From positions 6,838,232 to 6,902,231 of the forward strand of contig OZ316896.1 in NCBI GenBank assembly GCA_973895155.1: DNA of 64,000 bases. Reading direction: 5' to 3'. The position numbers and the translations under genes are program-made. This document shows positions 2,632 through 63,350 of this stretch, piece by piece. Source of the DNA: Marsupella aquatica. Lineage: Eukaryota; Plantae; Marchantiophyta. Numbering within the stretch: position 1 is the first letter of the stretch; every line of letters begins with the position of its first letter. Under the pieces are notes generated by a model. It had not been told where the DNA came from. It saw nothing but the letters and a program-made list of their open reading frames with translations, and did not search any database.

Positions 2632-2640
2632 AAAATCTCA

Positions 2641-4483: not shown

Positions 4484-4572
4484 TAGCCCTCTCCTCAAGC
4501 GGCGCCGTGCCCTCACAAGCCTTTCTGAAGTCTTCCACCAGAACTAAATCGCCTTTGAAATGCACATTGGTT

Positions 4573-5427: not shown

Positions 5428-7707
5428 TCAGGTGGAGGAATCTTTTAGGTGCAGATGAGGCTCCTTGTTTCTTCTTCCAAATTGGTTGACTATTCTCACT
5501 CAGATATCCCTTATCTTGACTACCTGTGTCTTTTTTATAATTTGAATAGAGACCGCCTTAAGCTCTCCCATAATTTTTGTTTAACTCTCATCAGTCCAAA
5601 TGAGGGAGAATTGGGGTGAGCTCTAAGTGTGGTGCTAGTGTCACGGAAAACACTAACATTGTCTCTCATTTCTTGATCTGGTGTAACATCTCTGATCAAT
5701 CTTCCTGCAAGTCTAACTGGAAGTGCAAAAGCATTTCAATCGGATGGTGTTAGTTTATTCGTGGTAGCCATGGTCAAGGTTCACAGGATTGTTGACTCAA
5801 GGTAGCTCTCTCCTCATGAATTCAGGAAAATGGGACTTTGCAATTTGCTGAAGATTTGAATAGTCATATTGGTTAACTCTTTGGAGCTCTGAAGGGTCGT
5901 CATCTCGTAGCTTTCTTTGTCAGAGACTGAAGGAATGCGCTCTGCACATTTGTATCAGTCTGAAGATTTGAATAGTTATATTGGTTAACTCTTTGGAGCT
6001 CTGAAGGGTCGTCATCTCGTAGCTTTCTTTGTCAGAGACTGAAGGAATGCGCTCTGCACATTTGTATCAGTCTGAAGATTTGAATAGTTGCTGATTTTTC
6101 TTCGCGTCGTGACTTCCAATTTCGCTTCCCTTTGTCAGTCATTCCTCATTCTGAAAGACATTTCTTTTGGAGGAGAGTTGGTGCGGGTGCATTCTTGGAG
6201 ATCCTTGGTTTACAAGAGGCAGCTTCAATGGTCGCACCGTTCCGTCATTTCTCAAATCCACGCCCTTTCAAGTTTGCTCGATCCATGGCTTGTATGCCCC
6301 TTTGTTGACACTTCTCTGCATATGGTGTCCGCAAGCGTTGTGTCGTTTCATCGAGTTCTCGGCGAGGTGCGTCTCTTCCGTGTGTCCCGTCAACTTGTAA
6401 CCCTTCAACTAGTAAACACTTAACTTGTAAACTCGTAAAGTCATAATCGTCACGACGCTTACCCGTAACTCGTAAGGGTTAACCCGCAATGCCTTATCCC
6501 CTCGTATCTCGGCGAGTCCTTAGTAGCAAAGTACCCTTTCCACTTCAGATTTCTCACTGCTTTAGCTAACCTACTTTATCTGTGCCTCCGATTTTGTCTT
6601 TGCATCAATGTACTAGCTAAGTCTTGTATAGAAATCACTATATATTCCTCTCTTGTAATTCTTCCATTTAGCCTTAATATAACCAAATGTAGATTTACTC
6701 GTTCCCACCAAGTAATAGATAGCCAATTATGAACTCCATACTACATCTCACACTTAACACCAAAGTTTGCGCATATCTATTGTGCAAGATGGCATAAGAT
6801 ATTCTAAAAAAAATAAAATCTCCAACTATTTATCTATGGCTTTTGCCGCCTAATTTTCCTAACAGTCTATCAAATTGGTTGCACTTTTATCTAAGTCGAC
6901 TTCTCATAATGTAAGAAGTTCATACTCTTCCTATACTATAGATTTAATTGACCAAAGTGAACTGTCTCTTAATTTCCTATCTTTCTTCTCTACAATTATG
7001 GTAAGTTAAAGTCTACCAGCTCTCTTGATTTAATTAAATCAGACTTAATCCCTCCTCTAAAAGTAGCTTCTTCCTACCACAACTTAGGAAGTCATGCTAT
7101 AATTAAAGTCCTCCTAACAATCATATGGAGACTTTACTCAATCTCCTTTCTTAATTCCAAAGCATTGCTTTTTAAGCACTTTTAAGCCTCTTCTTCTTAG
7201 CCTTCATTTTTCTCCTTCCTCTCATAACAAGGAGAACTCCTTCTCGAATTACCTCTGCAAATGCAGCTGGTGCATCTGTGAAAGTGTAAGGTCGAGCTTC
7301 CAAAACTTGAATTGACCATTCTTCATATGTATCCATAAGGAATATTTCTTTCTGTAATTTCTCAATCAATTCAATTCTGAAATTTGACATCCACTGCCTG
7401 CATATCATATTACCCCTTCTCCAAGAGATAAACAATGAAGTCTTGAGAAAGATGTCCTTTCTATAAGAGGAATGGCCTTCCCTCCTATATCCATTCATCT
7501 TTCTCCCTTGGTTATAATAGAGTTAAAATCAGAGTAGAGATAACTTCCTCCTAAATGGAATTGGCCTAACTCCACTTACAATGGTTACTCTCTTTCTCCC
7601 TGGCCTGAAAATCTCTCTTAAAATCCAAGGCTTCTAATTTGGTCATTCACTGCCTAATGTCAAACCATTCCTGAATCTGTTCCCCGGCAGCGGCGCCAAA
7701 AATCTCA

Positions 7708-9550
7708 TGTAGTTTGCCATAGAGAACCAAAAATCACATTTTAAAGTCTCCAAACTCGGTATTCGTTCCCTTTAAGAACAAGATGGGGTTGGTTTGATGT
7801 AATAAACTAAAAACAAAGCTTTAAGCTCTTGTGTCACACATAGTAATCAATCTTGACTACTTTAATCAGGTACTTTGAAGATCGCTCCACAGCGGTGAGT
7901 AGTTTTTGATGATAACTCAACATCAGATAACCTTCAATTAAGCAAAAGATTGCAATTAACAAAACACAAGGAAAAATCTCTCAGAGTATGCTTAAGGGAG
8001 TCTGGAATAGACCAAGGTTACTCCTTAGACATAAGTAATAATGTAATGACTTTAAAGGAATCCAAATCCACACGGCTTTTCAGATCTAAACTGCATACTA
8101 GAGTATCCTTTTAAAATGCTGGCAACATGTCTTGACCTTTCTTCCTAAGTGATACTTAGTCAAGATCTAAAAGGATAAATACTTCAGCATTTAGATGGTA
8201 CTAAGCAACATGAAGGTGAAAACATCATTTCCAATGCAACTTAAACTCAATGAGTTAACTCTAAGAACTTGTGAGATTACAATGTGTCACCAAAGCGGAA
8301 TCTGACATTATAATTCACGAGATTCATAACTGAGGTTTTACTTCAAGTATTTGGGTTCCAAAATACAAGAAGGAGGTAAGTCTCTCCAAATGTTAAACCT
8401 GATCTCGAACTCATAGATTCATGATCAACTAGTTTAACACAAGGGAGAGGCAAAACTGCAAAACTTAACCATCTCTCTACACTAGGGGAAGAGGTATAAA
8501 TAGTGATGAACTACAGAATAAGAGGTCACAGGGTCGAAGAGACATGCCTCTTCATACCCCTCAAAATTTTAAAATGGCGATTCAGTAAGTGAAAAGCCGG
8601 AAAAATGGCTAAGTATGAACTCTTAAACTCTTAAAAACTTAAACTCTTAAAAACGTAAAAACTTAAACTCTTAAACTCTTAATTTCGGTATACTAAAAAT
8701 TGAGTAGATTCAACTATTTTTAACTTTCTACTCCTGGTTCGGAAAACTCTGAAATTTTTCCAGTAGGGTTTCCTAGGTACAGACTACAGCCTAAAGAAGT
8801 ATGACAGCTTCTAAAGCTCTACAACACATTTAGAAAAATTGGTAAAAGTACTATACTTTTCAATACTAGCTAAAAAGATAGTCTCCTTCAAGCTTGTTGT
8901 CGAATATCATCGGGTTCGAGCAGCTCCACGTAGGTGACAGTCCGATTCTGTGTTACCTCCATCAGCTCAGTCTGACGTGGTGATCCTCGAGAGTAGGGTA
9001 GGCACCTTAGTTGTCTCTCAGGATACATCAAAGGCATTCGCTTCATCAAATAACAGGAATCTATACGAAGAGCTTCTCTGTATATCCCTAGTACATCATA
9101 GTTGTTGCAGGTGGCAGCATACACTTGAGGATAGTGATGCAGAAACTCATCACTATTCATCATCCTGGAATAGAAGGGTCGAAGTCTCCATTTGACATCT
9201 CTGAAATACCGGTTGAAGCTGGGCAGAGTTTGAGAGGTAAGGTGGAAGAGAAGTCAGTAATGAGCGCCTATGTCTTGCATTCCTTCCCTTTCAAGGTGAG
9301 CTCTTCATCCGTTGTGGAGTCCCGTTGAACTAGTTGTAAGATGTCACGATCACAGAGTCGCCAAATCTTAAGGTGTAACTCGTAAAGCAGTGAACTAGTA
9401 AACTCGTAAACTGAGTTTACTCGTAACTTAGGAACTTAGTAACTTTGAATGCTGTTTTAGTTACAGTTAGCAATAATTGCAGTCTAAACACCGTAAAAAA
9501 TTTAAAAATTTTCAGTTTCTTCATGCTTTTGGAATTACCCACTACTTACA
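7708..9550 (-). mobile_element. Putative LTR, copy 2
   Basis: Same sequence as 2641-4483, offset +5067. Confidence 0.6.
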
Positions 9551-9639
9551 TAGCCCTCTCCTCAAGCGGCGCCGTGCCCTCACAAGCCTTTCTGAAGTCT
9601 TCCACCAGAACTAAATCGCCTTTGAAATGCACATTGGTT

Positions 9640-10494
9640 TCAATTGTGTATTAAGTTTGATACTTGACTGGACAATTTGTCAAGCAACTTGTATACTTGC
9701 TTAACTTTTGGTGAAATTGTGGAAATATCTGGTACTTGCTTCTTTTTCTTGGTTTTTGCTTTTTCAAATTCAGAGCTAGAGCTGGTTTCATCATTTGAAG
9801 AACTAGGTGTTGTCCTTTTAGTGTTCTCTTCACTGCTGTTGTCACTCCCCTCGTCTGACATGGATTCTGATTCAGAATTGAGTTTCTTTTTCTTTTTCTT
9901 CTTAATATATTTCTTGAGCTCTTTTTTCAATCTTTTCTTTCCAGACACTTCTGAATCAACATATTTCTGTGCTGCAGCTAAAGCTTCTCCATATGTGGTT
10001 CCACCTTCTCTTCTCACATATCTTGCAATTCTAGATGGCAGTCCATTTATGAACCAATCTCTGACTGTTGATTTTGATGTAGCCGGGTTGTATTTGTCAA
10101 CTAACTCTTCCAGCTTATCTGCATATTTCCGAACAGATCCATACTTGTTCATTTTTAAATAAGAAATTTTTGTGAAGGCTCTTGCTGCTGCCCCATCTTC
10201 TTTGTATTTCTCTAAAAATGCAGCTTTTGTCTTTGTCCAGTCATTTTTATCTAAAAATCGATGATGCCACTTTTGTGCTCCTTTCTTCATAAGTCCTCCA
10301 AAAATGCTTGCCTTCTCAGCGTCTTGGCTATGTCCATTTGAAATTGCAGTAGCTTCAAACTCCTTTAAGTAGGTCTCTGCATCCTCTTTAGATGTCCCTT
10401 TGAAGGTGTCATAGCGAATATTATTCCGGGCCATGTTGATCAAATGAGTAGGAAGAAATAAACTAGGCTGTGAAGGAGTGGCATTGAGATTCAA
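9640..10494 (-). CDS. Gag-like protein, copy 2
   Basis: Translation identical to 4573-5427. Confidence 0.8.
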   Translation of the reverse strand: MNLNATPSQPSLFLPTHLINMARNNIRYDTFKGTSKEDAETYLKEFEATAISNGHSQDAEKASIFGGLMKKGAQKWHHRFLDKNDWTKTKAAFLEKYKEDGAAARAFTKISYLKMNKYGSVRKYADKLEELVDKYNPATSKSTVRDWFINGLPSRIARYVRREGGTTYGEALAAAQKYVDSEVSGKKRLKKELKKYIKKKKKKKLNSESESMSDEGSDNSSEENTKRTTPSSSNDETSSSSEFEKAKTKKKKQVPDISTISPKVKQVYKLLDKLSSQVSNLIHN

Positions 10495-12774
10495 TCAGGT
10501 GGAGGAATCTTTTAGGTGCAGATGAGGCTCCTTGTTTCTTCTTCCAAATTGGTTGACTATTCTCACTCAGATATCCCTTATCTTGACTACCTGTGTCTTT
10601 TTTATAATTTGAATAGAGACCGCCTTAAGCTCTCCCATAATTTTTGTTTAACTCTCATCAGTCCAAATGAGGGAGAATTGGGGTGAGCTCTAAGTGTGGT
10701 GCTAGTGTCACGGAAAACACTAACATTGTCTCTCATTTCTTGATCTGGTGTAACATCTCTGATCAATCTTCCTGCAAGTCTAACTGGAAGTGCAAAAGCA
10801 TTTCAATCGGATGGTGTTAGTTTATTCGTGGTAGCCATGGTCAAGGTTCACAGGATTGTTGACTCAAGGTAGCTCTCTCCTCATGAATTCAGGAAAATGG
10901 GACTTTGCAATTTGCTGAAGATTTGAATAGTCATATTGGTTAACTCTTTGGAGCTCTGAAGGGTCGTCATCTCGTAGCTTTCTTTGTCAGAGACTGAAGG
11001 AATGCGCTCTGCACATTTGTATCAGTCTGAAGATTTGAATAGTTATATTGGTTAACTCTTTGGAGCTCTGAAGGGTCGTCATCTCGTAGCTTTCTTTGTC
11101 AGAGACTGAAGGAATGCGCTCTGCACATTTGTATCAGTCTGAAGATTTGAATAGTTGCTGATTTTTCTTCGCGTCGTGACTTCCAATTTCGCTTCCCTTT
11201 GTCAGTCATTCCTCATTCTGAAAGACATTTCTTTTGGAGGAGAGTTGGTGCGGGTGCATTCTTGGAGATCCTTGGTTTACAAGAGGCAGCTTCAATGGTC
11301 GCACCGTTCCGTCATTTCTCAAATCCACGCCCTTTCAAGTTTGCTCGATCCATGGCTTGTATGCCCCTTTGTTGACACTTCTCTGCATATGGTGTCCGCA
11401 AGCGTTGTGTCGTTTCATCGAGTTCTCGGCGAGGTGCGTCTCTTCCGTGTGTCCCGTCAACTTGTAACCCTTCAACTAGTAAACACTTAACTTGTAAACT
11501 CGTAAAGTCATAATCGTCACGACGCTTACCCGTAACTCGTAAGGGTTAACCCGCAATGCCTTATCCCCTCGTATCTCGGCGAGTCCTTAGTAGCAAAGTA
11601 CCCTTTCCACTTCAGATTTCTCACTGCTTTAGCTAACCTACTTTATCTGTGCCTCCGATTTTGTCTTTGCATCAATGTACTAGCTAAGTCTTGTATAGAA
11701 ATCACTATATATTCCTCTCTTGTAATTCTTCCATTTAGCCTTAATATAACCAAATGTAGATTTACTCGTTCCCACCAAGTAATAGATAGCCAATTATGAA
11801 CTCCATACTACATCTCACACTTAACACCAAAGTTTGCGCATATCTATTGTGCAAGATGGCATAAGATATTCTAAAAAAAATAAAATCTCCAACTATTTAT
11901 CTATGGCTTTTGCCGCCTAATTTTCCTAACAGTCTATCAAATTGGTTGCACTTTTATCTAAGTCGACTTCTCATAATGTAAGAAGTTCATACTCTTCCTA
12001 TACTATAGATTTAATTGACCAAAGTGAACTGTCTCTTAATTTCCTATCTTTCTTCTCTACAATTATGGTAAGTTAAAGTCTACCAGCTCTCTTGATTTAA
12101 TTAAATCAGACTTAATCCCTCCTCTAAAAGTAGCTTCTTCCTACCACAACTTAGGAAGTCATGCTATAATTAAAGTCCTCCTAACAATCATATGGAGACT
12201 TTACTCAATCTCCTTTCTTAATTCCAAAGCATTGCTTTTTAAGCACTTTTAAGCCTCTTCTTCTTAGCCTTCATTTTTCTCCTTCCTCTCATAACAAGGA
12301 GAACTCCTTCTCGAATTACCTCTGCAAATGCAGCTGGTGCATCTGTGAAAGTGTAAGGTCGAGCTTCCAAAACTTGAATTGACCATTCTTCATATGTATC
12401 CATAAGGAATATTTCTTTCTGTAATTTCTCAATCAATTCAATTCTGAAATTTGACATCCACTGCCTGCATATCATATTACCCCTTCTCCAAGAGATAAAC
12501 AATGAAGTCTTGAGAAAGATGTCCTTTCTATAAGAGGAATGGCCTTCCCTCCTATATCCATTCATCTTTCTCCCTTGGTTATAATAGAGTTAAAATCAGA
12601 GTAGAGATAACTTCCTCCTAAATGGAATTGGCCTAACTCCACTTACAATGGTTACTCTCTTTCTCCCTGGCCTGAAAATCTCTCTTAAAATCCAAGGCTT
12701 CTAATTTGGTCATTCACTGCCTAATGTCAAACCATTCCTGAATCTGTTCCCCGGCAGCGGCGCCAAAAATCTCA

Positions 12775-14617
12775 TGTAGTTTGCCATAGAGAACCAAAAA
12801 TCACATTTTAAAGTCTCCAAACTCGGTATTCGTTCCCTTTAAGAACAAGATGGGGTTGGTTTGATGTAATAAACTAAAAACAAAGCTTTAAGCTCTTGTG
12901 TCACACATAGTAATCAATCTTGACTACTTTAATCAGGTACTTTGAAGATCGCTCCACAGCGGTGAGTAGTTTTTGATGATAACTCAACATCAGATAACCT
13001 TCAATTAAGCAAAAGATTGCAATTAACAAAACACAAGGAAAAATCTCTCAGAGTATGCTTAAGGGAGTCTGGAATAGACCAAGGTTACTCCTTAGACATA
13101 AGTAATAATGTAATGACTTTAAAGGAATCCAAATCCACACGGCTTTTCAGATCTAAACTGCATACTAGAGTATCCTTTTAAAATGCTGGCAACATGTCTT
13201 GACCTTTCTTCCTAAGTGATACTTAGTCAAGATCTAAAAGGATAAATACTTCAGCATTTAGACGGTACTAAGCAACATGAAGGTGAAAACATCATTTCCA
13301 ATGCAACTTAAACTCAATGAGTTAACTCTAAGAACTTGTGAGATTACAATGTGTCACCAAAGCGGAATCTGACATTATAATTCACGAGATTCATAACTGA
13401 GGTTTTACTTCAAGTATTTGGGTTCCAAAATACAAGAAGGAGGTAAGTCTCTCCAAATGTTAAACCTGATCTCGAACTCATAGATTCATGATCAACTAGT
13501 TTAACACAAGGGAGAGGCAAAACTGCAAAACTTAACCATCTCTCTACACTAGGGGAAGAGGTATAAATAGTGATGAACTACAGAATAAGAGGTCACAGGG
13601 TCGAAGAGACATGCCTCTTCATACCCCTCAAAATTTTAAAATGGCGATTCAGTAAGTGAAAAGCCGGAAAAATGGCTAAGTATGAACTCTTAAACTCTTA
13701 AAAACTTAAACTCTTAAAAACGTAAAAACTTAAACTCTTAAACTCTTAATTTCGGTATACTAAAAATTGAGTAGATTCAACTATTTTTAACTTTCTACTC
13801 CTGGTTCGGAAAACTCTGAAATTTTTCCAGTAGGGTTTCCTAGGTACAGACTACAGCCTAAAGAAGTATGACAGCTTCTAAAGCTCTACAACACATTTAG
13901 AAAAATTGGTAAAAGTACTATACTTTTCAATACTAGCTAAAAAGATAGTCTCCTTCAAGCTTGTTGTCGAATATCATCGGGTTCGAGCAGCTCCACGTAG
14001 GTGACAGTCCGATTCTGTGTTACCTCCATCAGCTCAGTCTGACGTGGTGATCCTCGAGAGTAGGGTAGGCACCTTAGTTGTCTCTCAGGATACATCAAAG
14101 GCATTCGCTTCATCAAATAACAGGAATCTATACGAAGAGCTTCTCTGTATATCCCTAGTACATCATAGTTGTTGCAGGTGGCAGCATACACTTGAGGATA
14201 GTGATGCAGAAACTCATCACTATTCATCATCCTGGAATAGAAGGGTCGAAGTCTCCATTTGACATCTCTGAAATACCGGTTGAAGCTGGGCAGAGTTTGA
14301 GAGGTAAGGTGGAAGAGAAGTCAGTAATGAGCGCCTATGTCTTGCATTCCTTCCCTTTCAAGGTGAGCTCTTCATCCGTTGTGGAGTCCCGTTGAACTAG
14401 TTGTAAGATGTCACGATCACAGAGTCGCCAAATCTTAAGGTGTAACTCGTAAAGCAGTGAACTAGTAAACTCGTAAACTGAGTTTACTCGTAACTTAGGA
14501 ACTTAGTAACTTTGAATGCTGTTTTAGTTACAGTTAGCAATAATTGCAGTCTAAACACCGTAAAAAATTTAAAAATTTTCAGTTTCTTCATGCTTTTGGA
14601 ATTACCCACTACTTACA
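12775..14617 (-). mobile_element. Putative LTR, copy 3
   Basis: Same sequence, offset +10134. Confidence 0.6.
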
Positions 14618-14706
14618 TAGCCCTCTCCTCAAGCGGCGCCGTGCCCTCACAAGCCTTTCTGAAGTCTTCCACCAGAACTAAATCGCCTTTGAAATGCACA
14701 TTGGTT

Positions 14707-15561
14707 TCAATTGTGTATTAAGTTTGATACTTGACTGGACAATTTGTCAAGCAACTTGTATACTTGCTTAACTTTTGGTGAAATTGTGGAAATATCTGGT
14801 ACTTGCTTCTTTTTCTTGGTTTTTGCTTTTTCAAATTCAGAGCTAGAGCTGGTTTCATCATTTGAAGAACTAGGTGTTGTCCTTTTAGTGTTCTCTTCAC
14901 TGCTGTTGTCACTCCCCTCGTCTGACATGGATTCTGATTCAGAATTGAGTTTCTTTTTCTTTTTCTTCTTAATATATTTCTTGAGCTCTTTTTTCAATCT
15001 TTTCTTTCCAGACACTTCTGAATCAACATATTTCTGTGCTGCAGCTAAAGCTTCTCCATATGTGGTTCCACCTTCTCTTCTCACATATCTTGCAATTCTA
15101 GATGGCAGTCCATTTATGAACCAATCTCTGACTGTTGATTTTGATGTAGCCGGGTTGTATTTGTCAACTAACTCTTCCAGCTTATCTGCATATTTCCGAA
15201 CAGATCCATACTTGTTCATTTTTAAATAAGAAATTTTTGTGAAGGCTCTTGCTGCTGCCCCATCTTCTTTGTATTTCTCTAAAAATGCAGCTTTTGTCTT
15301 TGTCCAGTCATTTTTATCTAAAAATCGATGATGCCACTTTTGTGCTCCTTTCTTCATAAGTCCTCCAAAAATGCTTGCCTTCTCAGCGTCTTGGCTATGT
15401 CCATTTGAAATTGCAGTAGCTTCAAACTCCTTTAAGTAGGTCTCTGCATCCTCTTTAGATGTCCCTTTGAAGGTGTCATAGCGAATATTATTCCGGGCCA
15501 TGTTGATCAAATGAGTAGGAAGAAATAAACTAGGCTGTGAAGGAGTGGCATTGAGATTCAA
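14707..15561 (-). CDS. Gag-like protein, copy 3
   Basis: Translation identical to 4573-5427. Confidence 0.8.
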   Translation of the reverse strand: MNLNATPSQPSLFLPTHLINMARNNIRYDTFKGTSKEDAETYLKEFEATAISNGHSQDAEKASIFGGLMKKGAQKWHHRFLDKNDWTKTKAAFLEKYKEDGAAARAFTKISYLKMNKYGSVRKYADKLEELVDKYNPATSKSTVRDWFINGLPSRIARYVRREGGTTYGEALAAAQKYVDSEVSGKKRLKKELKKYIKKKKKKKLNSESESMSDEGSDNSSEENTKRTTPSSSNDETSSSSEFEKAKTKKKKQVPDISTISPKVKQVYKLLDKLSSQVSNLIHN

Positions 15562-16130
15562 TCAGGTGGAGGAATCTTTTAGGTGCAGATGAGGCTCCTT
15601 GTTTCTTCTTCCAAATTGGTTGACTATTCTCACTCAGATATCCCTTATCTTGACTACCTGTGTCTTTTTTATAATTTGAATAGAGACCGCCTTAAGCTCT
15701 CCCATAATTTTTGTTTAACTCTCATCAGTCCAAATGAGGGAGAATTGGGGTGAGCTCTAAGTGTGGTGCTAGTGTCACGGAAAACACTAACATTGTCTCT
15801 CATTTCTTGATCTGGTGTAACATCTCTGATCAATCTTCCTGCAAGTCTAACTGGAAGTGCAAAAGCATTTCAATCGGATGGTGTTAGTTTATTCGTGGTA
15901 GCCATGGTCAAGGTTCACAGGATTGTTGACTCAAGGTAGCTCTCTCCTCATGAATTCAGGAAAATGGGACTTTGCAATTTGCTGAAGATTTGAATAGTCA
16001 TATTGGTTAACTCTTTGGAGCTCTGAAGGGTCGTCATCTCGTAGCTTTCTTTGTCAGAGACTGAAGGAATGCGCTCTGCACATTTGTATCAGTCTGAAGA
16101 TTTGAATAGTTATATTGGTTAACTCTTTGG

Positions 16131-16752
16131 GCAACGGTGGGAGTTGGCTGGTGCCTCAAGTTCTTTCACTCTGGAAACTTGGAGAAACATACAGGTTCCA
16201 AATGTCCAGACTTCCCACAAAAGTCACAGTAGAACTCATCCGGAGGGACATCACATTCATTAGCCTTATGATCCGGATCCCCACAGTAATTGCAAGAAGG
16301 GACAAGCATAGGTGCAGAATGGGCATGCTTAACTTGTTGGGGTTGCACCATTGACCTACCAGATGCCGGGGTAGGAACGAAAGGCCTGGTTCGTGGCCCA
16401 CGACGTGAGTGACTGGCCTGGTAATGAGCATGGGCAAGCTCAAGCTTCTCTGCAATGTTGTACACTTGAAGAAGATTGTAAGAATCCCCATGTTGTACAA
16501 AGACCTGATGTAGCACCTGCAAATGGAGCAAAGGGTTACTCTCAAGCGCATCAAGATAACGATTTGCAGCCTCTTGGTCTGTGATGCTTTTGGTATCCTC
16601 CTTCAACTTGAGCAATCGTTGGTACATCATCTTCAACGTTTCATCCTTTTGCCGCATGAATGTAGCAAGCTGCATTATCTTCTCTGAGCTCTTCACTGGA
16701 AATTCCTGTTCAAGAATTTGAAAGAACTCATCCACTGGATCAAGATACACTG
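16131..16752 (-). pseudogene. C-terminal half of a second Ty3-like Gag with two CCHC zinc knuckles
   Basis: CNYCGDPDHKANEC and CDFCGKSGHLEPVC; Q.KDET.K.MY.R major-homology-like motif. Joins the 20771+ segment when the insert is removed. Confidence 0.85.
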
Positions 16753-19700
16753 TGTGACGCCGCCGGTACGGCGGTTAATGAGTGATTCAGTCTAACTGCG
16801 CTCGGCACGCGCGTTAGGTGGGTCTTAGGCCGCTATTATTAGCATAACGACAGTATTTAGGTAATCATTAGGGGTAGGACATCATTAGGCAATAAGGGGG
16901 ACTTCAGGTTCGGGCTGGCGGCGGGTCGCTATTCGCACACCCGGGTTACGAGCGTGGAAGGGCCCCTCCCTCGGGTCCGTATAACGAACTTAAGGAAGCG
17001 GCCACTGACGCACGCTGACTCAGACCGGCAGAGTGGCCGATACACCACAAGCGTGAGCGGTTCAGCCTATGGGCGTCGAGGAGACGTCGGGGATCGACAA
17101 GCCCTCAAAGTATAAAAGGGGAGCCAACCCTTTGTAGTGCACCAGTCCATCAGTCCGCGCGCCAGCTTCGACCCCAGCTCTCCCGTTCTCTCTAGGTCGC
17201 CACTACTATCTCCTCTGAATGTCGCACACGATCCTCTCCAGCTCGGCCATTCAATTCTGGACGCAGTTCCTATCTACCGAAAGGCACTTGGCCGATTCAT
17301 TGAAACACGCCAACCCGCGCCGATACGAAATCGAACGAGAGAGCCATCCGCCTAGCAGGACGACACCACTACGTCCTTAACTTTGACTACCCGTCTTAGA
17401 GCGAGCTTTACCGACCAGCAGAGGTATCTGGGTACTTCTTCAACGGAGACAAATATATCGGGTTCTGGGAAGCATTGCTTTGGCTTCCGGACGAGGTCTT
17501 CAACATCCCGGGTACAATCGACCTGCAGCGACATCACTTCGACCACATCCCTGCCCGGGTTCGGGCTGTCATTAACGGCGAGTCCAGTACCAACCGTTCG
17601 ACAAGGGCGTCCGCACTCGCTTCGGAGAACTTCTACCAACACCTGCAGAGCTTCATGGGAACTCGGCCATCAACCAACATGACCAACTCAGCCGTGCCCG
17701 TACCCGTACCCGTGCCCATGCAACCCCAGCCTCAACCTCAGGCTCAGCTTCAGCTTCAGCCTCAGCCGCAGCCTAGCCAAACCCCACCACCTATCACCCA
17801 GCCAGCACAGGTACGCTCCGTCATCAACGTTGTGGATCTTAGCGATGATGATGAGGCTACCCCACCCTTGACCAGGCGGCCCAGAGGAACAAGCGCTCGG
17901 GGGGCCGATACTATATCGTCCCCACCCCCTGCTCTGACCCCAGGAGCGGCCCCAGCAGACAACATGGTGACCGTGGCCGCCCCGGGCCCGTTACCAACGG
18001 CAGTGGCCCTCCCCAGGCCCGATCGGGAGGATGGGGAAGTATCACCTTCCATGAGTCAGTCACGGGGAAAGAAGAGGAAGGAATCCGCCACTGCATCCGG
18101 GTTACCGTTGGCCACGGTAGCCGTAGCCAAGGTGACGATGCACCGCATGGGGGAAAACGTTCACAGCAACATCCTCCATCCCAAGCATGCGGTGTACCTG
18201 AAGACTCAGGGATTTGAGCACCTCGCCTCTCTCCCCTAGAACACTTGCAGGTACTACGGGGAGGACATGATAGAATTCGTCAAGAATTATGACGACGTAC
18301 GTCAACAGACTCGGCTGCGGGGAAGGAATATGTCCCTCACAGAAGAACGGCTCAAGATGATCTTCGGGTTACCCGAAGGTGACCATCGAGTCGAATCACG
18401 GGCTCCCGGGGGCAAGGGGGCCAAGTACCAATCTTCAAGTTTTCCCTCAGAGGGAGCAGTAGACAACGGGTTCGTGATGAGGACCTGCCTCATGCCCGAG
18501 ATAGCTGAGCGGCTGGAGTTCCAAAGGTACGCTCTCCACATGATGGAACCCCGGGGGGAGATCCCCGCCGCCCAGGTTATCCAGGTCGAGAACTATCGAC
18601 CTAGGAAATGGGCGTCGTACTTCGCTAAGAAATTCCATGAAGAGATGGAGCGGCGAAGGAAGACGCTGTACATTGGTGGGAAGGCGTATTTCGCTAGCCA
18701 CATCGAAATCATTCTTGAGTGGTACGCCCAGTTTGATCGACGAACCCTTCCCCGCATCAACGTTACAAAGCTGGTCCCAGCTAGGTGGGTTTTTCCGGCA
18801 TTGGAGAGACGGCCCCAACCCGAGGCCCGAAGTCCAGTGGACACGCCAGCTTCACCCACCCCACCTCCACAAATAGATGTAATCGTAACCGAGGAGGCGC
18901 CGGAGGGGTCGGTCGTCGCAACCGTTGATGCGACCCAACTAGCCGGGCTAAGTACAGAAGTTGGTACGGCAGAGGTCTTACCCGAACCCGGGTCTCCCAA
19001 GGACCCACTGATGGCAATTCCAGAGAACCGGACATTGCTGCAGGAGGACACTCCAGCCCCTTCCAACGTTATGTCCCCAGGGCTGGACGTCACTGCCCCG
19101 GCCCCTGCGCGTGTTGACGTCTGCCCGTGCCCAAATCCGGACAGGCACAACTTGGACCACCCGGAACTCTTCGTACAGGGTACGTTTCTGAACGGGCTTC
19201 TGGGAGATTTCTCTCATCAAATTGCCCGGGATACCGGGGAGTTCATGGCCCGGAAGGTAGCCTGTTTCTTCAATCAGGAGTTGGTTGCCGCAGTAAAGGC
19301 AGGTTGGGCCCAGTCGGAGGCCTTTCAGAGGATAGAGCGGTACCGGGTGGAGTCCGTGTACCTAAAGAATGAAGTGGCGGCTCAAGAGGCTGAGCTTCTG
19401 CAACTACGACCCAAGGTTGCAGCCGCCGATGAGTTGTTAGCAAAGGCGCACACTCTTACCGCCCTAGCCGAACAGGCCAAAGCTGGGAACGAGGCCGAGA
19501 TTACACGACTCCGGACCCAGATTGACAGTTTGAAGAAACAAGCTGTCACCTGGCAGAAAGACCTGGAGGAGGCCGAGGAGCGAGCCCAGCGGGACACGGC
19601 GGAGATAGCCACGCTGCAGGCCGAGATAGCGCGGCTCCAAACCGAGGCCGAGAAGCAGGATCAGCTGGCGGCTAAACTGACGAGCGACGCCCAGCAGCTG

Positions 19701-20765
19701 GAGGAGGCATGTCAGGAGGCAGTAGAGGAGACGGACGCGGCGAGGCGAGAGAACGAATCTCTACTGGACCAGGTCCAGCTCCTCAAAGCGGACAATGATA
19801 GGCTTTGAAGGCAGCGGGATGGCCGTTCCCATTCGGGCGGCTCTGGCAAGCGTGCCAGGCATTAGCGGCGGAGTAGGAATAGATTAGGATTAGGATTGGC
19901 TTAGTCAGGCTCTTGGGACAGGCACTTGCCTTAGGTACAGTAGCGCTGCCCTGCTGTCCAGCCTGCGTAGATTAGGATCTTCTAATAAGACACAGCCGTT
20001 TTCCGGCCTGACTGTCAGCTTAGTTAGAACCTTAGTCAGCGAATCTTTGGCGAGAGGACACCCCATCCCTCGGCTCTTAGTATTTAGTGCACCCCTCGGT
20101 AGAGGCGGGGGGGGGGGTTTTTAGTTTCAGAGTCAGACATCCGCGGGATATGCGGGGAGTCCCGACCTCTGGGAATGAAAGAGTACCAAGGGGAGGGGGT
20201 AGGACTAAGCTCATCGGGCGAGTGCGGAGCCGGGCTCCGTTGTAGTGTGCACCCTCGGCCTTGAACCTGTTCGTTCCAGGGCTGTCGGGTCAACTAAGTG
20301 TACGCATATGTTCCCTTTGTAGTAAAATCCTTTCCCATCATCTTCCTTCGTGTAAATCGAGATTGTATGCATGTGTGCGCATATGTGTGTGGGTTTCTCG
20401 TATATGGGTGGCAGCGCGAGGCCAAACGCACTACCCGAGATGTGCACAGGGTGCAGCCTGCGGGTAAGTGGTTGCGAGCACGGGTTGGGGACCTGTATCA
20501 TCGAATCCGGATCGAAGGCGGACAACACGAAGGCTTAGAAGCCCTTAAGCCGGGGTCGATCCTGCTATCGACTAAGGTACGTTCCGGCGGCGGAACACAA
20601 ACCATACCTAGGAGGTGTCCGTATTTAGCAGTAGGCGCACTTAGCGCTAGTTTACGAGAATAAGGTGCATTACGTGCTTCCCTTCCTGCCCGAACCCTCA
20701 GATTTACGAGGGATGTGCCCGTCTAAGCTGAAGTCTGAGTTAAGGCCGAAGCCTACGACGTGACA
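16753..20765 (+). mobile_element. 4013-bp solo-LTR-like insertion carrying a long protein-coding frame
   Basis: Ends TGTGACG...CGTGACA. Flanked by an exact 5-bp TSD CACTG (16748-16752 and 20766-20770). GC-rich relative to flanks, TATAAAAG at 17111, no internal direct LTR pair seen. Confidence 0.85.
17475..19808 (+). pseudogene. Plant-transposon accessory protein (PMD/Transposase_28/32-like core plus C-terminal coiled coil), with one in-frame TAG at 18237-18239
   Basis: ORFs 17475-18239 and 18267-19808 are in the same frame (27-nt gap). Core GFEHLASLP*...MIEFVKNYD...RLRGRNMSLTEERLKMIFGLPEG; the last ~150 aa are heptad-rich. Confidence 0.7.
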
Positions 20766-20770
20766 CACTG

Positions 20771-22713: not shown

Positions 22714-23069
22714 GCTCTGATATCGATTGTTGAGCAAAGATGACATTCACAATGACAAGCCAATGAACCATCCAGTGCACAAGTAGTTGACACAAAGAGA
22801 TACGTGGTTTGCCTCACCTTGAGGCTACATCCACGTGAACACACAAAATTTATTGCACTCTAGGCCCATTGTCCACACTAAGTCTTTGCAATACAAAATC
22901 TCCCTATCTCTCAACTGGCTCTATAACAATGAGCCCGAGTTCCTTTTATCAAAACAAACATTGTTTGGGATATGGTGTGCAGCCTAGTTAACCTAACCCA
23001 GTCTACAACTAAGATAAACCCTAACTGCTATTATAGTTGTAACCCTAGACTAAGAGTAAATGTCTAACA
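22714..23069 (-). mobile_element. Short LTR (22728-23069, 342 bp) with an adjacent degenerate tRNA-Met PBS
   Basis: TGTTGAG...CTAACA termini; gctctgatatcg resembles gctctgatacca; reverse-complement homologous to the solo LTR at 60083-60620. Confidence 0.7.
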
Positions 23070-24594
23070 TTAAACAATCCAAATAGCGTTCCTCCACGTC
23101 TATATAATATGATTCAAAATGATTTTAATGAGGAGAAAGACATATTTGTCGTGTAAATCATTTGATAAACGCTAAATATATGGATGCCTCCCCATCCCCT
23201 GCAATGTTCTTAGGCTTCAGACACCCTAAAATGTAAGAAAAAATATTTGTTTCAACCCCTATAAAGTTGAGATTTGGTTAGAAAGACTCTAATATTCTTA
23301 TAAGTTTCAAAATTTAATTAAAAAAACCCTATTGTTCTTCTGCAAAAATCTTAAGACCCTTTAAACCAATAAAATGACCCTATTCTTCGTCGCATGTGAT
23401 GTGTCATTTTTGTGGAAGTGAAACCCCCAAGGATAAGCGCGTAAGTGACATAAGTGTGGTCTTGTTTTTGGTGTCGATGCGGGAGAAACCTTCTTCTTGT
23501 TTGATTGCAAAAGGAGGGGAGCTACATCTCTTTCAATCTTAGATGTATCAACGATTGAAACATGAAGAGATCATGGTTACCTTGTTGTAGTTTATAACGC
23601 AACTTGCTTGATGTTTGAGAAGATTGTATTGGCGATATTTTGTGTGAGCTTGACATGCAAGTCTCAATGGGATGTTGAGAGGGAAAGGGGAGGTAGAGGA
23701 AGTCCACAACACAGATGTACCTGATACTTGAGCTAGAGCAAATGCCTTCTTGGGTTGGTACTAGACGAAGAGTTGTTGTCGATCTAAAAGCGATTACGAC
23801 ACAGAAGATTGGAGGTTGCCAGTAGAGTTGGAGAACAACTCCTAGTGCAACAATAAGTGGCTCAATGTAATGAGCCCATCCATCTAGATGAAGAATTGGA
23901 AGGAGACGAACTGCGAAGAGGAGGGGAGCCTTTTTGTGGCTGTGCAACCTGAGCTTGTGAGGAGTCCAAGCGCTAAGCTCATTGCACTGTCACCAATGGC
24001 ACAAAGGCCCGTATTGCTTCCAATAGCGCAAAGGCTAATCCCACCTATGGCCGCTGCTCATCCGTGTTCAGTGCGTACCTTTCAAGGATGAAATTCAGTG
24101 TTAGAAGGGAATGAGTTAACTAATCTTAATTAGTGGTTGTTGATACCTTTTTCCCCTTTGAAATCCTCCTGGATTGTTTAATTAGATTCTGTGGTGCAGT
24201 TAACTGATGGAATGCTCAGGGGCTGGTGTGTGAATATCCTGGCTTTACAGTACAGTCTGGCGTGTCTAAGTGCACCCTCCGTAAGTGCATTTTGTGTTAA
24301 GTGCAGCCTGACTCTTTCTTCCTCAAAAGATGAGCATCTTAATGAGTTCATGCAACAAAAATGCACCATTTCTAACTGCAAACTGACCCTCAGTAAATCA
24401 CGATGATAAGAGCTAAACGTGGGTAAGTACAGAATTGCATGAGGATAAGTAACGCCTTTGTAGATAAGTGCAAGAGATGTCTATACAGAGTATTTTCTTT
24501 GCACTAAATAATCCATCATATATGCTCCAGTACCAACCGTCCCTTGCAGTTTTCATTTGTGATTGCAAGAGCCAGTAAGTTTGTAATTATGGTC

Positions 24595-58233: not shown

Positions 58234-60082
58234 TGTGATGCCTAGCCAAGAATCACTAGGCCGTGTAAAAGGTAACCCGGGTGGTATACAATAAAACCAC
58301 TAGTATAAGGGGGAGAAAAACAAGGAAACCATAAACAACTAAGGGTATACATGGAACCCAAGCCGAGGCCGGGAGTAAGAGGAGTAACGGCCTCTAAGGG
58401 TCGCGATTAGGGTTAGGGCACATTAATGCTGATGGCTGCCGGTAATCAATAACCAAGGCAACCAGAGCAGGCCGGAGGGGGGCAAGGCAAGGTCACCCAA
58501 GAGTGGCGGCTCACATTCGCACCTTGATCAAGCAAAGTGCAAGCAGAAACCAACGACTGTCAGCTGCAAGGAGAACACGGGGGCATAAGCAGCTACTAAG
58601 CAATGACAGAGGAGGGAATGAGCAACATCAATCAAGCGGCACATTTCTGGGGATGCTTGTTCAAACGGGCAAGTGAGTACGTTGGGACCTACGAGGAGGA
58701 AGAATAAAAAAAGCAACCCGTGAGCGACAGGAGCTTGCTCGGTTGTGGGAATTGCAGAAGTCGACCTTTTTAGGAGGAGAGTTCATCAAGGCTGAATTCT
58801 TGTGGACACCTACTGCCGATGAGCTTGACGATCTTCTAATTCAAGACAACAGAATTGTCAGCATCCGACAGACCATCAACAATTGCAACGACAAACATTG
58901 GAACTTGAAGGGTTGCACGACAGCGTGGACAAAAGCAACAGTGTTGGGAGAATCATCAGGATTGGCTGAAATGAAGAGAAAGATGGCCAACAACAAAGAA
59001 AACACACCAGCCAAGAGGACGAGGTTGGCAATATCAAGAAGGCCGGCCAAACAAGGGAGCCAGAGAGAGGAGGGAGCCAAGGAACCAGAAGTCAACCCAG
59101 TCAATGCCGTCCCTACCCAAGATGACACCTGGAAGCGCTAGGGCTTCATGGCCGGATCAGGCTTGAAGGATTTTGTTAGATTGTCGTGGCTGAAGCCGGA
59201 GGTGCCAGAGTCAGACTTACTGGAATGCATGGGATCATGGGACCACAAGTCCAGCTCAACCAAGATCTATGGGAGGGACTTCTATCTCACCTCCAATGTA
59301 ATTGCCAAAGTATTTGGCTTGTCGGTGGGCAACAAGGCTAAGGTAGAAACTTGGAAGAACCTGTTGGACAAGGAGTTTAGATTGTTCCCCGGGCCATCAA
59401 CAAAGAATGGCTTCTTCTGCAACACCTGCACCAACCCGCATATTGGAGAAATGATAGATTTCTTACGGGTGACAATGCATTGCAACTTGCCGAGGCCAGA
59501 GATTGGCAAAGCACACGTTTATCTGGCAGAGAGGCTAGACCCAAGTCGGGACTACAACGGGTACCTCCTCAACCAACTAAGGAAGATACTGAAGGAGGAA
59601 TAGCAGGTGATCAGCCAAGGGAGCGTGTCCAGGCTTGGTTATCACATGCCGTTGTTGTGCCGGTATGCCCGGAGTTGAATCTTTGTGCCAATCTTTCCCC
59701 TGCAGGCAAGAGCACCAGAAGAGGAGTCGGAGCCGAGGCCGGCAACAAAGAAGCCCGACCCGCCCGACAGCCCCATGATAGCTCAGATCTTTCGGCAGAC
59801 GCCGGAACCCAAACCGATGCAACAACCGGCCATATAGAGCCTTCTACAGATACTAAAGAAGGAGAAGGCGGCATTAGCACCAGAGGCAGCGGTAGCAAGC
59901 ACCACAAGAACAACAAGAGGAGAACCCACGGCCGGGGCCGTGAAGAGAAGCAGGCCAGAAAATGAGCCGGGAGTGAGGAGGTATGTAGGAGACTCCAGTT
60001 CAGAATCCGAGGGACATGGACCCAGGGTTCCCAGTCCTGAGAAGGAAAGCAAAGGCCGAGTGAGCCGGAAGAGCAAGCTGCA

Positions 60083-60620
60083 TGTTAGGTATTTACTCAA
60101 GGTCTAGGGTTACGACATGTAACCGTAATTAGACTAACCCTCGGAGACGTGGTTAGGTTAACTAGGATGCACACTATATGCCAAGCGGTGTTTGCTTGGA
60201 TAAGTGGAACTTAGGCTCATTGTTATGGAGCCACTTGAGAGATGAGGAGAGCTTACATTGTGGAGACTTGGTATGGCCGACGGGCTTAGAGTTCAGTAAA
60301 GCTTTCTTATGTGTTCCCGTGGATGTAGCCTCAAGGAGGTGAACCACGTATCTCTTGTGTCATGGCAGTGGATGGGAAACGATGTGATAGCATTACACAT
60401 TAGTGACTCTTAAAGTCCTTAGTTTGTTATTAGTGAGGATGTAGAGATCCTCACATGAGCATTTGACTCATTTCTTTGCTTTGTATTTGGCTTTTTTTCC
60501 ACAGCTCCCTTGACTCATTGGGTCGTCGTGGAGCTTAGAATTTGACTTTGACTTTGACTAACTACTTGCGCATTGGATGTGTCATGTGCTTACCATTATG
60601 AGTGTCGTCTATGCTCAACA
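60083..60620 (+). mobile_element. Solo LTR (TGTTAG...TCAACA) with near-perfect TSD CTGCA/CCGCA; carries SINE-like copy 3
   Basis: Homologous to the reverse complement of 22728-23069; lengths agree once the ~205-bp insert is removed. Confidence 0.8.
60356..60559 (+). mobile_element. ~205-bp SINE-like retroposon, copy 3
   Basis: Same 5' start (tcatggcagtggat) and (TTTGAC)n tail as the other copies; absent from the 22.7-kb LTR homolog. Confidence 0.7.
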
Positions 60621-63350
60621 CCGCACGCATGCATAGTCCCCGGCAGGATGCCGGGTTTGCGGCTAGTCCTAGAGAGGATCCGCAGGCACCAGGACGCCCA
60701 AAAGTCAGGGAGCACGTGGAGGAATACCACAAGGACTTGGGTTACGGGTCGGATCACTCGGTTCTAGGGGTGCGGACTTGTGGCTGTTTTATCCCCACAC
60801 TTCCAAAAGTGGTGCGTGGGGATCCACAACACCAAAAGAGCCCGGAGTCTCCCCCACCGGACATACCTCCTCCAATTTACGATGAGAGACAATAGGCCAA
60901 TCATGAGTTGCAGCAGCGATTCAGTGACCTAGAGGAAGCAACCCTGGCCAAGGAGAAGGATTTGCCAAGTGGAGGACGACCGGAGGACATTCGACGTCTT
61001 GCAGGGACTCAAGCTGGGCCTTTGCCCACGTTTGATGAAATACGGAGGGCAGCATGGGAACGAAGGCCGTGTTGGGAGATGCCGACATCTCCTAACCACT
61101 CCACCTATGCACGTTCCAGAGCCCTGGAATATGGGAGGATGTGCGGACTACTTGCCCTCAACATCTTTGGGGTAGAATTGGAGATGGGGCCTTTTGTCCA
61201 CAAAGAGATGTTGGAGAAAAGCCGGTTGGAGGACGCACTGGCCTTGGCGAGGATGAAGAAGGAGGAAGTCATCCGAGGGCTTAGAGAGAAGGAAGCCAAG
61301 GGCGGAGATTTAAAGGCGGCCAAGCAGGCCCTGGACGAGCTACAAATTAGGAAGCATCAGATAAGCATCATGTAGGGGCAATTGGCCCAGACCAAGGAGG
61401 ATTTGGCCGAAGCCCTCAAGGAGAAGGAGAAGTGGAAGCATGAGCTGAAGAAGACAGAGGCAGCTCACATAACTGCCTGCAACAAAGCCATGATCGAGGC
61501 CCAGAGGAAGGAGAGGGCACTAAAGGATGAGATCAAAGAATGCCGCAAGGCCCTCCATCAGAAAAAAGGCAAACTTGATGAGACCTACAAGGGCATCGAC
61601 AAGCTAAAGGAAGACCTTGAGAACCTGGTGGCCAACTTTCAAGCCGAGCTGCGTAAGAAGGATGACACGCTCAATCAAACCTACAAGAAGATGAATAAGA
61701 TCGATTTTGATGTCGTCCATGAGCTCAACGCGGAGCTGAAAGCAACCCAGGAGGAGAGGGCGGCCTTACAAAAGGAGTTGGATGAGAGCATGGCGGAGTT
61801 GGAGCAAGCTTGTGGGGATTTAGACTAGACCCCCTGGTGGAATTGGAGGACGCCGCCCATAAAATAGAAAATTTGTAGAGGCGGGCGGATAACTAAACTG
61901 AGTGGTTGAAGAAGCAGCCTGAGGAGGTAAATCGGCTGGCCGCAACAAGTGGACCCCCAGTGGTGGCAACCGGTGTTCGGGGACCAGTTTAAAGTGGTGT
62001 TAAAAATGAACTTTTTATGCTTTTAGGGACTTGGTCATAACATTGTATTTTTATAGGTTGGTTCAATTTCTCTTAACTCTATTCAGTTTTTAAATATCAA
62101 ATTACACTAAGTCATTCTTATTTAAAACACTAAGCCATCACTTTTGTTCATTTACAATTATTGTATTCATGATCACGCTCATACATAACTTTCAACTAAC
62201 TTCAACGCATCATTTTCATCTCCACAACAACTAAGCATTTTCACCTCAACAACATCTCATCATTTCCATCACAACAAAGTAGTCCAAACTCATCATTTAT
62301 TTCTTTTATTCTCAAAAAAAGAAGCTTTGGTTCAGGTTTACAAAATGTTTATTCGGTTGCTCATCCTCTAACTCAGGTCTCCATACTAAACTTAGTTCAG
62401 GTCAACAGGTCAGGTCGCGGTCTCGGTCTTGAACTCATCTATGGTTTCTCCTAGGCACTTCGAACACAACTTCAGTCTCCGGCGAGCGTCCTTCATGTCC
62501 TTGTTTTTCTTGCATTCTTCCTCTTGTCCTTTCTTCCTCCTCTCCTCAAGCTTCCAGTCCCACAACAAAAAAAACCTATGGCCGGTAACCTCAAGTCCCA
62601 TGGCAACGGATAGTCCCTAACTTGAAAATAGTTTCAACTATCGGATTCCACTCGTCGAATGAATGTAAGTCAATCAATCTACAATCTCCCTTAAAACTCC
62701 GTAACTTTAGATGCAAAAATCTGCAAGTAATCCACACTTCCAACTGAAATCTCTTAACCAATCTCATAAAAAAAATCACTTCTTCTTGCTCTTCTAGTGC
62801 TAGAATTCTCCTTCTTTCAAGATTCTTCTAGGTTCTGGTCGTTCCTAAAAAAAAGAAATTAAACCAGCTTGCTCCACTCAGTTTTGGGTCAGCTTCCCTT
62901 TTATTCATCTTTCATTCAGGAGTTTGAGTTTTGTTCTCTCTTTTTGTTAAAAGAATCTGTTTTTGGCTGCTCAAGGGGAACCCTTTTACTCGGGAAGCTG
63001 CTATATAGGTGCTATATGGTGAATCCAACTCTCATGTTTGTCTTATTCATATTTGTGTATCATGAATTTTTATTTGAATGTACCTGAACAAGGGGCATCC
63101 TTTGTATCACATAGACTTTTAATTCATTTTTGGACCCCTTTAAATTTTTGGTATCAAAATCCTATAGTATTTTGAATTTATTTTGGCAACCCCCTTAATT
63201 TTTAAACTTTGTTAAGTCCTAGAGAGAAACTAAGGGCTTCACTTTCTACGCTTTTAAGTATACTCATGAGTGAGAGGAACTATTCTAAGTAATGTCAGCA
63301 CATCCTGTCTTAAGCTCCCCTTGTGGCTTTCTTTCCTAAGTTTATGGTTT

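Follow-up and report, generated by a model that had tools for sequence, protein, structure and literature searches.

What kind of element leaves behind a single 4-kb unit that has the ends of a long terminal repeat (LTR) and a long protein-coding gene between them? This question is raised by an insert in the genome of the liverwort Marsupella aquatica (GenBank assembly GCA_973895155.1), which lies in a stretch of 64,000 nucleotides of contig OZ316896.1 (positions 6,838,232 to 6,902,231 of the forward strand). The whole stretch is referred to here as the window, and all coordinates are counted from its first letter. A first-pass annotation, made from the letters of the window and a list of its open reading frames (ORFs), had described the insert as resembling a solo LTR that itself encodes a protein. 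Judged from its sequence, the insert is an integrase-type insertion, and the accessory gene that it carries is real and preceded by a TATA box within the insert. The boundaries of the insert and of its target-site duplication are as follows.

16753..20765, plus strand: the insert, 4013 bp, TGTGACG...CGTGACA, rich in G+C and high in CpG, present as a single copy in the window.
16748..16752: left copy of the target-site duplication, CACTG.
20766..20770: right copy of the target-site duplication, CACTG.

This is a true insertion with a target-site duplication at 16753-20765. When the insert and one CACTG were deleted in silico, two pieces of the minus strand fused into a single open frame of 313 aa. 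This host frame contains two CX2CX4HX4C knuckles, and its match to Pfam zf-CCHC (E 0.0011) lies just under the cut-off; Retrotrans_gag was not matched by the 313-aa frame in Pfam. Because of the two zinc knuckles and the near-threshold zf-CCHC match, "gag-like" is a fair label for it. Its similarity to two other gag-like frames in the window was not significant. The termini of the insert, TGTGACG and TGTCACG, are inverted-complementary at 6 of 7 positions. Thus, the TG...CA ends, the exact 5-bp duplication and the restored host gag of the first-pass annotation were all recovered at identical coordinates, the host frame being gag-like by its knuckles. A 6-bp reading of the duplication (ACACTG), with TG...AC ends, is also possible; the canonical reading is 5 bp with TG/CA.

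The G+C content is 0.53-0.58 inside the insert versus about 0.40 alongside, and the observed/expected ratio of CpG is 0.87 in the insert versus 0.49 and 0.63 in the flanks. These values fit a recent arrival in older, CpG-depleted repeats.

The plus strand of the insert carries a gene with the following features.

17219..19865, plus strand: accessory gene, now a pseudogene, with ATG at 17219 and TAG at 19863-19865; ancestral length about 880 codons.
17111..17116, plus strand: TATAAA, 108 nt upstream of the ATG at 17219.
19984..19989, plus strand: AATAAG, a poly(A) signal candidate by its position, 119 nt after the ancestral stop.

The gene is genuine, as indicated by its open frame, its codon-position bias and its relatives. 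The frame at 17400-19808 comprises 279 and 522 open codons with a single TAG between them. Its length of 522 aa (802 aa when one stop is allowed) exceeds the maxima of 413 and 494 reached in 500 Markov simulations of the insert, and the G+C content at the three codon positions is 0.65/0.45/0.65.

An exhaustive HMMER search of 1.84 billion representative proteins, using residues 1-360 after the TAG at 18237 as the query, yielded 30 relatives at E<=1e-3, including 10 at E<=1e-10; the best had an E-value of 1.3e-29 at 49% identity. Twenty representatives were looked up. Seven of them are recorded as "unnamed protein product [Calypogeia fissa]", and this leafy liverwort is the only named source among the 20; the remainder consist of ten found in Logan assemblies only, two multi-source entries ("hypothetical protein") and one from an SRA-derived set. 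The C. fissa relatives, among them CAM6086213, CAM6101870 and CAM6082161, form at least seven clusters in one chromosome-scale assembly, several with many near-identical fragments. Among the cluster members, intact proteins of 906 aa (P0039) and 787 aa (P0044) are present. The alignment of P0039 with the insert has 739 columns (31% identity, E 2.6e-80) and runs through both the TAG at 18237 and the TGA at 19806.

Pfam gave no family for the two long frames of the insert at E<=1 beyond sub-threshold coiled-coil families at residues 360-522, none for the core of the protein at E<=10 and none for the 20 relatives at E<=0.01. PMD (PF10536), Transposase_28 (PF04195) and DUF1985 did not match the core, nor P0039, P0044, P0034 and P0007, at E<=10. 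A word-indexed protein search returned nothing with the single protein and only two already-known proteins with an alignment (A1). Restricted to proteins of 1587-4530 aa, this search revealed no relative, and this speaks weakly against a polyprotein-fused form. In addition, no relatives turned up when metagenome contigs (two scans) and viral contigs (one scan) were searched. A protein-atlas search ranked Streptophyta TRP28 clusters first with a score of 0.77, which by the rating of the tool is a lead only. Based on these relatives, the gene belongs to an unannotated, liverwort-centred protein family.

The intact relatives also reveal how far the copy in the insert has decayed. The first lesion is a change of frame between 17338 and 17403. 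The second is a TAG at 17397-17399 in the main frame, accompanied in the same stretch by a TAA at 17378 in the frame of the ATG. The third is the TAG at 18237-18239. Nineteen relatives have a residue in this alignment column, and in 15 of them it is Trp; in P0039, LPWNTCRY corresponds to LP*NTCRY of the insert. The fourth is a TGA at 19806-19808, which precedes the conserved C-terminal tail RDGRS...GKRAR found also in P0039. An "FW" motif in the frame of the ATG at 17219 is matched by 4 of 5 relatives, and the main frame is matched only from 17403; the stretch between them spans 26-32 residues in the relatives and 65-86 nt in the insert. Since the relatives are collinear across this stretch, the 5' frame change is a lesion and not an intron. 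With at least four disabling lesions, this copy of the gene is dead and would give a truncated product at most. The first-pass annotation had rightly placed a TAG at the position of a Trp in the homolog. Its single frame broken only by this TAG has to be replaced by one that also contains the frame change at 17338-17403, the TAG at 17397 and the TGA at 19806, and its protein of about 780 aa by the ancestral gene of about 880 codons from 17219 to 19865.

An intron was considered for the 5' part of the gene. The second copy of the gene in the window (copy 2, described below) has a consensus-like 101-nt GT...AG segment that would join the ATG exon in frame; the intact relatives are collinear and leave no room for it, and it was rejected. 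The idea that the gene runs antisense to the RNA of the element, which followed from a retained intron, was dropped together with it.

The TATA box noticed earlier at 17111 is the only TATAAA of the insert. Other candidate signals comprise TATATG at 20401 and further AATAAG at 16891 and 20659. The succession of TATA box, gene and AATAAG would make up a self-contained transcription unit.

The protein itself can be divided into two parts.

18132..18773, plus strand: core domain, about 210 residues, with a VANC21-like predicted fold.
19320..19805, plus strand: C-terminal coiled-coil region, covered by the sub-threshold coiled-coil families mentioned above; a similar tail is present in the relatives.

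AlphaFold run on the single sequence gave a predicted local distance difference test (pLDDT) of 31, which is unusable, and a model based on an alignment was used. The AlphaFold2 model of the core, built from 33 alignment rows, has a mean pLDDT of 85.8 and a predicted TM-score of 0.77, with most of residues 1-210 above 90. It has one clear structural match. VANC21 on its target DNA (9lnk_A) aligns with model residues 1-214 at Z 8.3 (203 aligned residues, root-mean-square deviation 4.1 Å); the next-best chain reaches Z 2.3, and only 5 of 48,161 representative PDB chains have Z>=2. Foldseek also placed VANC21 at rank 1 (9lnj_A; E 0.17, probability 0.80, TM 0.44). Searches of PDB sequences with the A1 profile and of a viral structure library returned only noise. 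On this model, the core is predicted to share the VANC21-type fold across the whole domain. Furthermore, a conserved Trp and a stretch "L-T/S-x-x-x-L-x-x-I-F-G-L-P" in the family resemble, by eye, what we take to be the start of PMD.

The protein had been called PMD/Transposase_28-like in the first-pass annotation, which had also proposed the structure prediction of the core. The comparison stands at the level of the fold, through VANC21 and the reported likeness of VANC to PMD, and does not stand at the level of sequence. It should be noted that the PMD link of the fold is taken from the comparison of VANC with MAIN/MAIL1 in two papers and not from a fold comparison of our own. According to the available parts of these papers, the PMD (PMD-C) of MAIN/MAIL1 resembles the VANC domain in structure (PMC13547354; bioRxiv 10.1101/2024.09.27.615353), and VANC, likened in structure to MAIN, has a coiled-coil helix predicted for self-association (PMC13547354).

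What, then, carries this gene? In Pfam, no insert frame of at least 80 aa matched gag, protease, reverse transcriptase (RT), RNase H, integrase or transposase, and no DDE domain was found in the insert frames. The insert compared with the window by blastn returned only itself. A repeat finder gave nine small families of direct repeats, none of which links the ends of the insert. Local alignment of 16753-17218 (466 bp) with 19865-20765 (901 bp) scored 22 in direct and 21 in inverted orientation. This is the level of chance: simulated scores were 20.8 +/- 2.3, and the two values were reached in 98 and 148 of 300 simulations, respectively. Nothing like a primer-binding site (PBS) or a junction of a polypurine tract (PPT) with TG was spotted by eye within the insert. 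The insert has no short LTRs of its own and is therefore not TRIM-, LARD- or TR-GAG-like. These results bear out the earlier remark that gag/pol and an internal LTR pair are missing. Short terminal direct repeats, which the first-pass annotation had named as a sign of a TRIM/LARD-like element, are likewise absent from the insert.

Ends of the TG/CA type together with a 5-bp duplication are characteristic of LTR integrases, and a lone unit without internal repeats is what recombination between two LTRs leaves. Therefore, the most likely identity of the insert is that of a solo LTR from a Ty3-type retrotransposon with giant LTRs, a reading that we favour with modest confidence. Two of the features used to recognize solo LTRs are present in the insert, namely TG...CA with a short imperfect inverted repeat and a duplication of 4-6 bp around a single unit. 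For non-chromovirus Ty3 elements of plants, the part of PMC6317226 available to us records LTRs as long as about 5 kb. Because LTR-sized units of 4-5 kb occur in plants, a solo LTR of 4 kb is not odd by length alone.

In the accessible text of PMC6317226, the extra ORFs of plant LTR elements sit 5' or 3' of the polyprotein, and the full text of PMC7264820 contains neither "in the LTR" nor "within the LTR". This raises an alternative in which the insert is a full element with an internal deletion, composed of a piece of the 5' LTR, the interior region with the extra ORF and the end of the 3' LTR, so that the gene was never inside an LTR. The interior position of the extra ORFs of plant Ty3 elements in the texts at hand (PMC6317226, PMC7264820 and PMC11963269), as for Ogre ORF1 and Retand TRP28, agrees with it. 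In the antisense ORFs of Retand, an uncharacterised domain is joined to matches of the coiled-coil type (Smc, Mis12, TolA), a layout similar to that of the insert protein (PMC11963269). An illegitimate deletion would also keep the outer ends and the duplication. However, the retained part of the 5' LTR should recur at the 3' end, where the end-versus-end alignment is at chance, and PBS-like or PPT-plus-TG junctions were not seen by eye. Moreover, the same layout in copy 2 would require that the same deletion occurred twice or was inherited. We regard an internally deleted element as unlikely.

Copy 2 lies in the distal part of the window.

58234..62000, plus strand: copy 2, a diverged and decayed relative that starts with TGTGATGCC, with the homologous core at 59142-59774 and a coiled-coil tail to 61828.

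By tblastn, its core matches at 59214-59774 with 25% identity (E 4e-12). The core is followed by frame breaks, a 200-bp repeat insertion at 60360-60560 and coiled-coil frames to 61828. A Ty3-type RT motif on the plus strand (MCRDYRPLNLVTPQDR) breaks off at 58233, and the terminus TGTGATGCC of copy 2 follows directly. The terminal 9-mers of the insert (TGTGACGCC) and of copy 2 (TGTGATGCC) are identical at 8 of 9 positions. The pattern TGTGAYGCC, which was built from these two 9-mers, has no further occurrence in the window. In both copies, the gene starts about 380-470 nt from the shared 9-mer in the same orientation, although the two units have no detectable similarity in DNA and 25% identity in protein. 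As the insert and copy 2 share a terminus and a co-oriented gene, the ends and the gene travel together.

No 3' end could be located for copy 2, which is probably truncated there, and the window contains no continuation of the RT. A candidate end at ACAGG, after CA at 62405, does not restore the RT frame and was taken as chance. A likeness between the N-termini of the insert and copy 2, seen by eye, was not significant, as 277 and 188 of 2000 shuffles scored at least as high; the N-terminus of the insert is nonetheless backed by the relatives. A repeat of about 200 bp is present in three copies (55862-56060, 57953-58163 and 60360-60560), which are 89-94% identical, with one inverted. Because its copies interrupt the upstream Ty3-type RT and copy 2, this repeat was active after both. 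Also, the 280 bp at 60082-60362 resemble 22788-23070 in inverted orientation (76%).

The association of ends and gene bears on the suggestion that the gene is a captured or decaying host gene, placed in the repeat by chance and without a role for the element. The copy in the insert is a pseudogene with at least four lesions, and LTR elements are known to capture genes, as stated in the available part of PMC7264820. We consider a captured gene very improbable: two families whose DNA has diverged greatly have retained this gene at one position and in one orientation with respect to the terminal 9-mer, the relatives fall into at least seven clusters, several with many near-identical fragments, as expected for a repeat family rather than for a single host gene, and the nearest fold is itself that of a transposon accessory protein.

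Two further features concern the terminus.

16753..16770, plus strand: 5' terminal 18 nt of the insert, the first 9 nt being TGTGACGCC, which recur as TGTGATGCC at the start of copy 2.
20580..20597, minus strand: inverted copy of the 18-nt 5' terminus, with 3 mismatches, 168 nt inside the 3' end.

Only 0.02 such inverted matches are expected per window, and both segments form small hairpins of 6 GC base pairs. This inverted terminus is in line with the proposal that the insert belongs to a separate, LTR-less non-autonomous class, moved in trans by a retroelement integrase or by a DDE transposase of the Ginger/GingerRoot type. Both copies in the window are solitary, and the duplication can be read as 6 bp, the length known for GingerRoot, which occurs in bryophytes and lycophytes and has TA or TG...CA ends (PMC6839031). 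However, the terminal inverted repeats of GingerRoot measure 100-150 bp (PMC6839031), whereas in the insert the inversion involves only 7 terminal bases and the 18-nt inverted copy is set back 168 nt from the 3' end; the insert also has no DDE or integrase domain. An LTR-less class would need a new mechanism, because its ends would not be rebuilt by ordinary reverse transcription without terminal repeats, a PBS and a PPT. We find it distinctly doubtful.

Several points weigh against the solo LTR that we prefer and against the role proposed for its gene. The LTR label draws entirely on the features of the ends and on priors, and the insert and copy 2 are both solitary. The promoter-like and poly(A)-like signals place neither U3/R/U5 nor the strand of the presumed retroelement. 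A gene of 880 codons inside an LTR is not among the positions of extra ORFs listed in the portions of PMC6317226 and PMC7264820 at hand. As for the protein, the Foldseek E-value for VANC21 is weak (0.17), and a Z of 8.3 falls in the range that the tool calls common for models without a clear match, yet it is 6 units above the next chain. A tie to DUF1985, PMD or Transposase_28 at the sequence level is absent in the Pfam and profile searches. Finally, the enrichment of motifs in the non-coding parts, given below, is merely suggestive.

Based on the solo-LTR reading, we suggest the following course of events. The unit would be the LTR that remained when the two LTRs of a complete element recombined. 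The gene would be transcribed from the TATA box at 17111, with a start predicted about 30 nt after it, and its transcript would end near the AATAAG at 19984, so that each LTR, a solo one included, would act as a self-contained cassette of promoter, gene and terminator. The intact protein of about 880 aa would enter the nucleus, and basic stretches (RGKKRK and GKRAR) are present in its sequence. It would then self-assemble via the coiled coil, and the VANC/PMD-like core would bind short motifs within non-coding DNA of the family that encodes it. The bound protein may counteract the silencing of the family in trans by clearing silencing marks. The DNA binding and the anti-silencing role are inferred from the predicted fold and from the published work on VANC and PMD. 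According to the available text of PMC5735166, VANC21 binds YAGTATTAY in the non-coding parts of VANDAL21 and strips DNA methylation from its own family. The accessible part of bioRxiv 10.1101/2024.09.27.615353 proposes that transposon-encoded PMD proteins may oppose Polycomb silencing.

Candidate target motifs were sought by counting words in the non-coding parts of the insert. GATTAGGAT occurs three times, a count equalled by some 9-mer in 7 of 500 simulations, and CCCTCGG occurs four times, a count equalled by some 7-mer in 35 of 500 simulations. TTAGG, found nine times, was rejected as a target motif since some 5-mer equals this count in 118 of 1000 simulations; it is not enriched. Just after the TATA box, CCCTTTGTAGTGCACC (17128-17146) has an exact 11-mer in common with 20313-20323. 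Its part TAGTGCACC recurs twice in the 3' non-coding region (20084-20098 and 20240-20260), beside CCCTCGG. These repeats could be binding motifs or start-site motifs; their counts alone are not significant.

Taken as a whole, the proposal is that a liverwort lineage of retroelements has a 4-kb terminal repeat containing the full cassette for an anti-silencing factor of VANC/PMD fold. There would be two copies of the cassette per provirus, and solo LTRs would be working sources that unsilence the family in trans, as a retrotransposon counterpart of the VANDAL-VANC system outside flowering plants. We put this forward as a tentative possibility.

Comparison with known systems places the insert among several kinds of elements. 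VANC21 (DUF1985; PDB 9lnj/9lnk), from the Arabidopsis Mutator-like transposon VANDAL21/Hiun, is alike in being a transposon-borne accessory protein with a coiled coil, and it is the sole clear structural match. It has no similarity to the insert protein at the sequence level. The carrier of VANC21 is a Mutator-like element, whereas that of the insert protein has LTR-type ends and a 5-bp duplication. Furthermore, VANC is called dicot-specific in the available part of PMC13547354, while the relatives of the insert protein are from a liverwort.

PMD proteins (Ogre ORF1; MAIN/MAIL1) offer a second comparison. The domain is mostly associated with transposons, and the extra ORF is present in 57% of Ogre elements, according to the accessible text of PMC6317226. 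PMD is described as widespread in angiosperms (PMC7156037). PF10536 fails to match the insert protein. In Ogre, the ORF sits between the 5' LTR and gag, whereas the gene studied here lies inside the 4-kb unit bounded by TG and CA. The antisense TRP28 (PF04195) ORFs of Retand are likewise extra ORFs of Ty3/Tat-type elements, with predicted DNA binding and often with coiled-coil-type regions (PMC11963269). They differ in being reported from flowering plants only, in the size of the LTRs of Retand (315-1194 bp) and in the location of the ORF in the interior between pol and the 3' LTR (PMC11963269); PF04195 fails on the insert protein.

If the unit is an LTR, a parallel in position comes from a virus. 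The sag gene of mouse mammary tumour virus lies in the U3 part of the LTR and has about 320 codons. A whole accessory gene is thereby contained in the repeat, twice per provirus and once per solo LTR. The sag product is unrelated to the insert protein, and it is shorter. LARD and other giant-LTR elements presumably resemble the insert in having LTR-sized units of 4-5 kb and differ from it in that their LTRs are described as non-coding; for LTR length itself, the figure of about 5 kb is that of PMC6317226. The available portions of the surveys PMC6317226 and PMC7264820 give no plant example of a coding LTR. Ginger/GingerRoot elements have a duplication of 6 bp (or 4 bp) and, in autonomous copies, an integrase-like DDE transposase (PMC6839031). 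Compared with them, the insert lacks inverted repeats of 100-150 bp and a DDE domain; the 6-bp reading of the duplication is possible.

The surroundings of the insert are rich in repeats. Positions 1-16130 are occupied by a tandem array with a unit of 5066/5067 bp, in 3.2 copies of at least 99.9% identity. Each unit contains a 284-aa minus-strand ORF that matches Retrotrans_gag (E 5e-6), and 36 bp separate the end of the array from the gag-like frame that hosts the insert. The array could have arisen as a concatemer (LTR-interior-LTR) of an element with gag alone or by recent amplification, or it could be an assembly artefact. A single-exon gene for a sterol C-methyltransferase (Methyltransf_11 and Sterol_MT_C) lies amid repeats at 48226-49383 on the minus strand; its nearest atlas clusters are from Streptophyta (score 0.99). 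Together with the C. fissa relatives of the insert protein, this gene marks the window as land-plant DNA, probably of a liverwort. Also on the minus strand, a helicase C-terminal stretch (AITGHKSQG...VMLSRV), which we take to be of the Helitron/Pif1 kind, was recognized by eye at 51158-52021. Three long frames in a run at 32926-36195 (minus strand) contain, by eye, a CxCxxF...CKH motif, presumably SWIM-like. The frames at 51158-52021 and 32926-36195 had no Pfam match at E<=0.001, and an Rfam scan of the window gave no match.

In the available parts of the literature cited above, the plant transposons for which sequence-specific anti-silencing proteins are described are the VANDAL DNA transposons of Arabidopsis and related species, and PMD is described as an angiosperm domain. 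In this context, what is known is a transposon accessory protein of VANC/PMD fold, and what would be new, given the predicted model, is the kind of carrier and the plant lineage. A predicted fold of VANC/PMD type in an unannotated liverwort family, on a unit with retroelement-type ends, would trace this fold back as far as bryophytes and suggests that the same kind of DNA-binding module has been adopted by very different transposons. The intact members of 787 and 906 aa are concrete proteins for tests of DNA binding, DNA methylation and Polycomb marks. If the carrier is an LTR, the position of the gene would be new for plants, because PMC7264820 and PMC6317226, in their accessible parts, place extra ORFs in the interior and none inside an LTR. 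A solo LTR of this family would then be a free-standing gene, beyond a leftover promoter.

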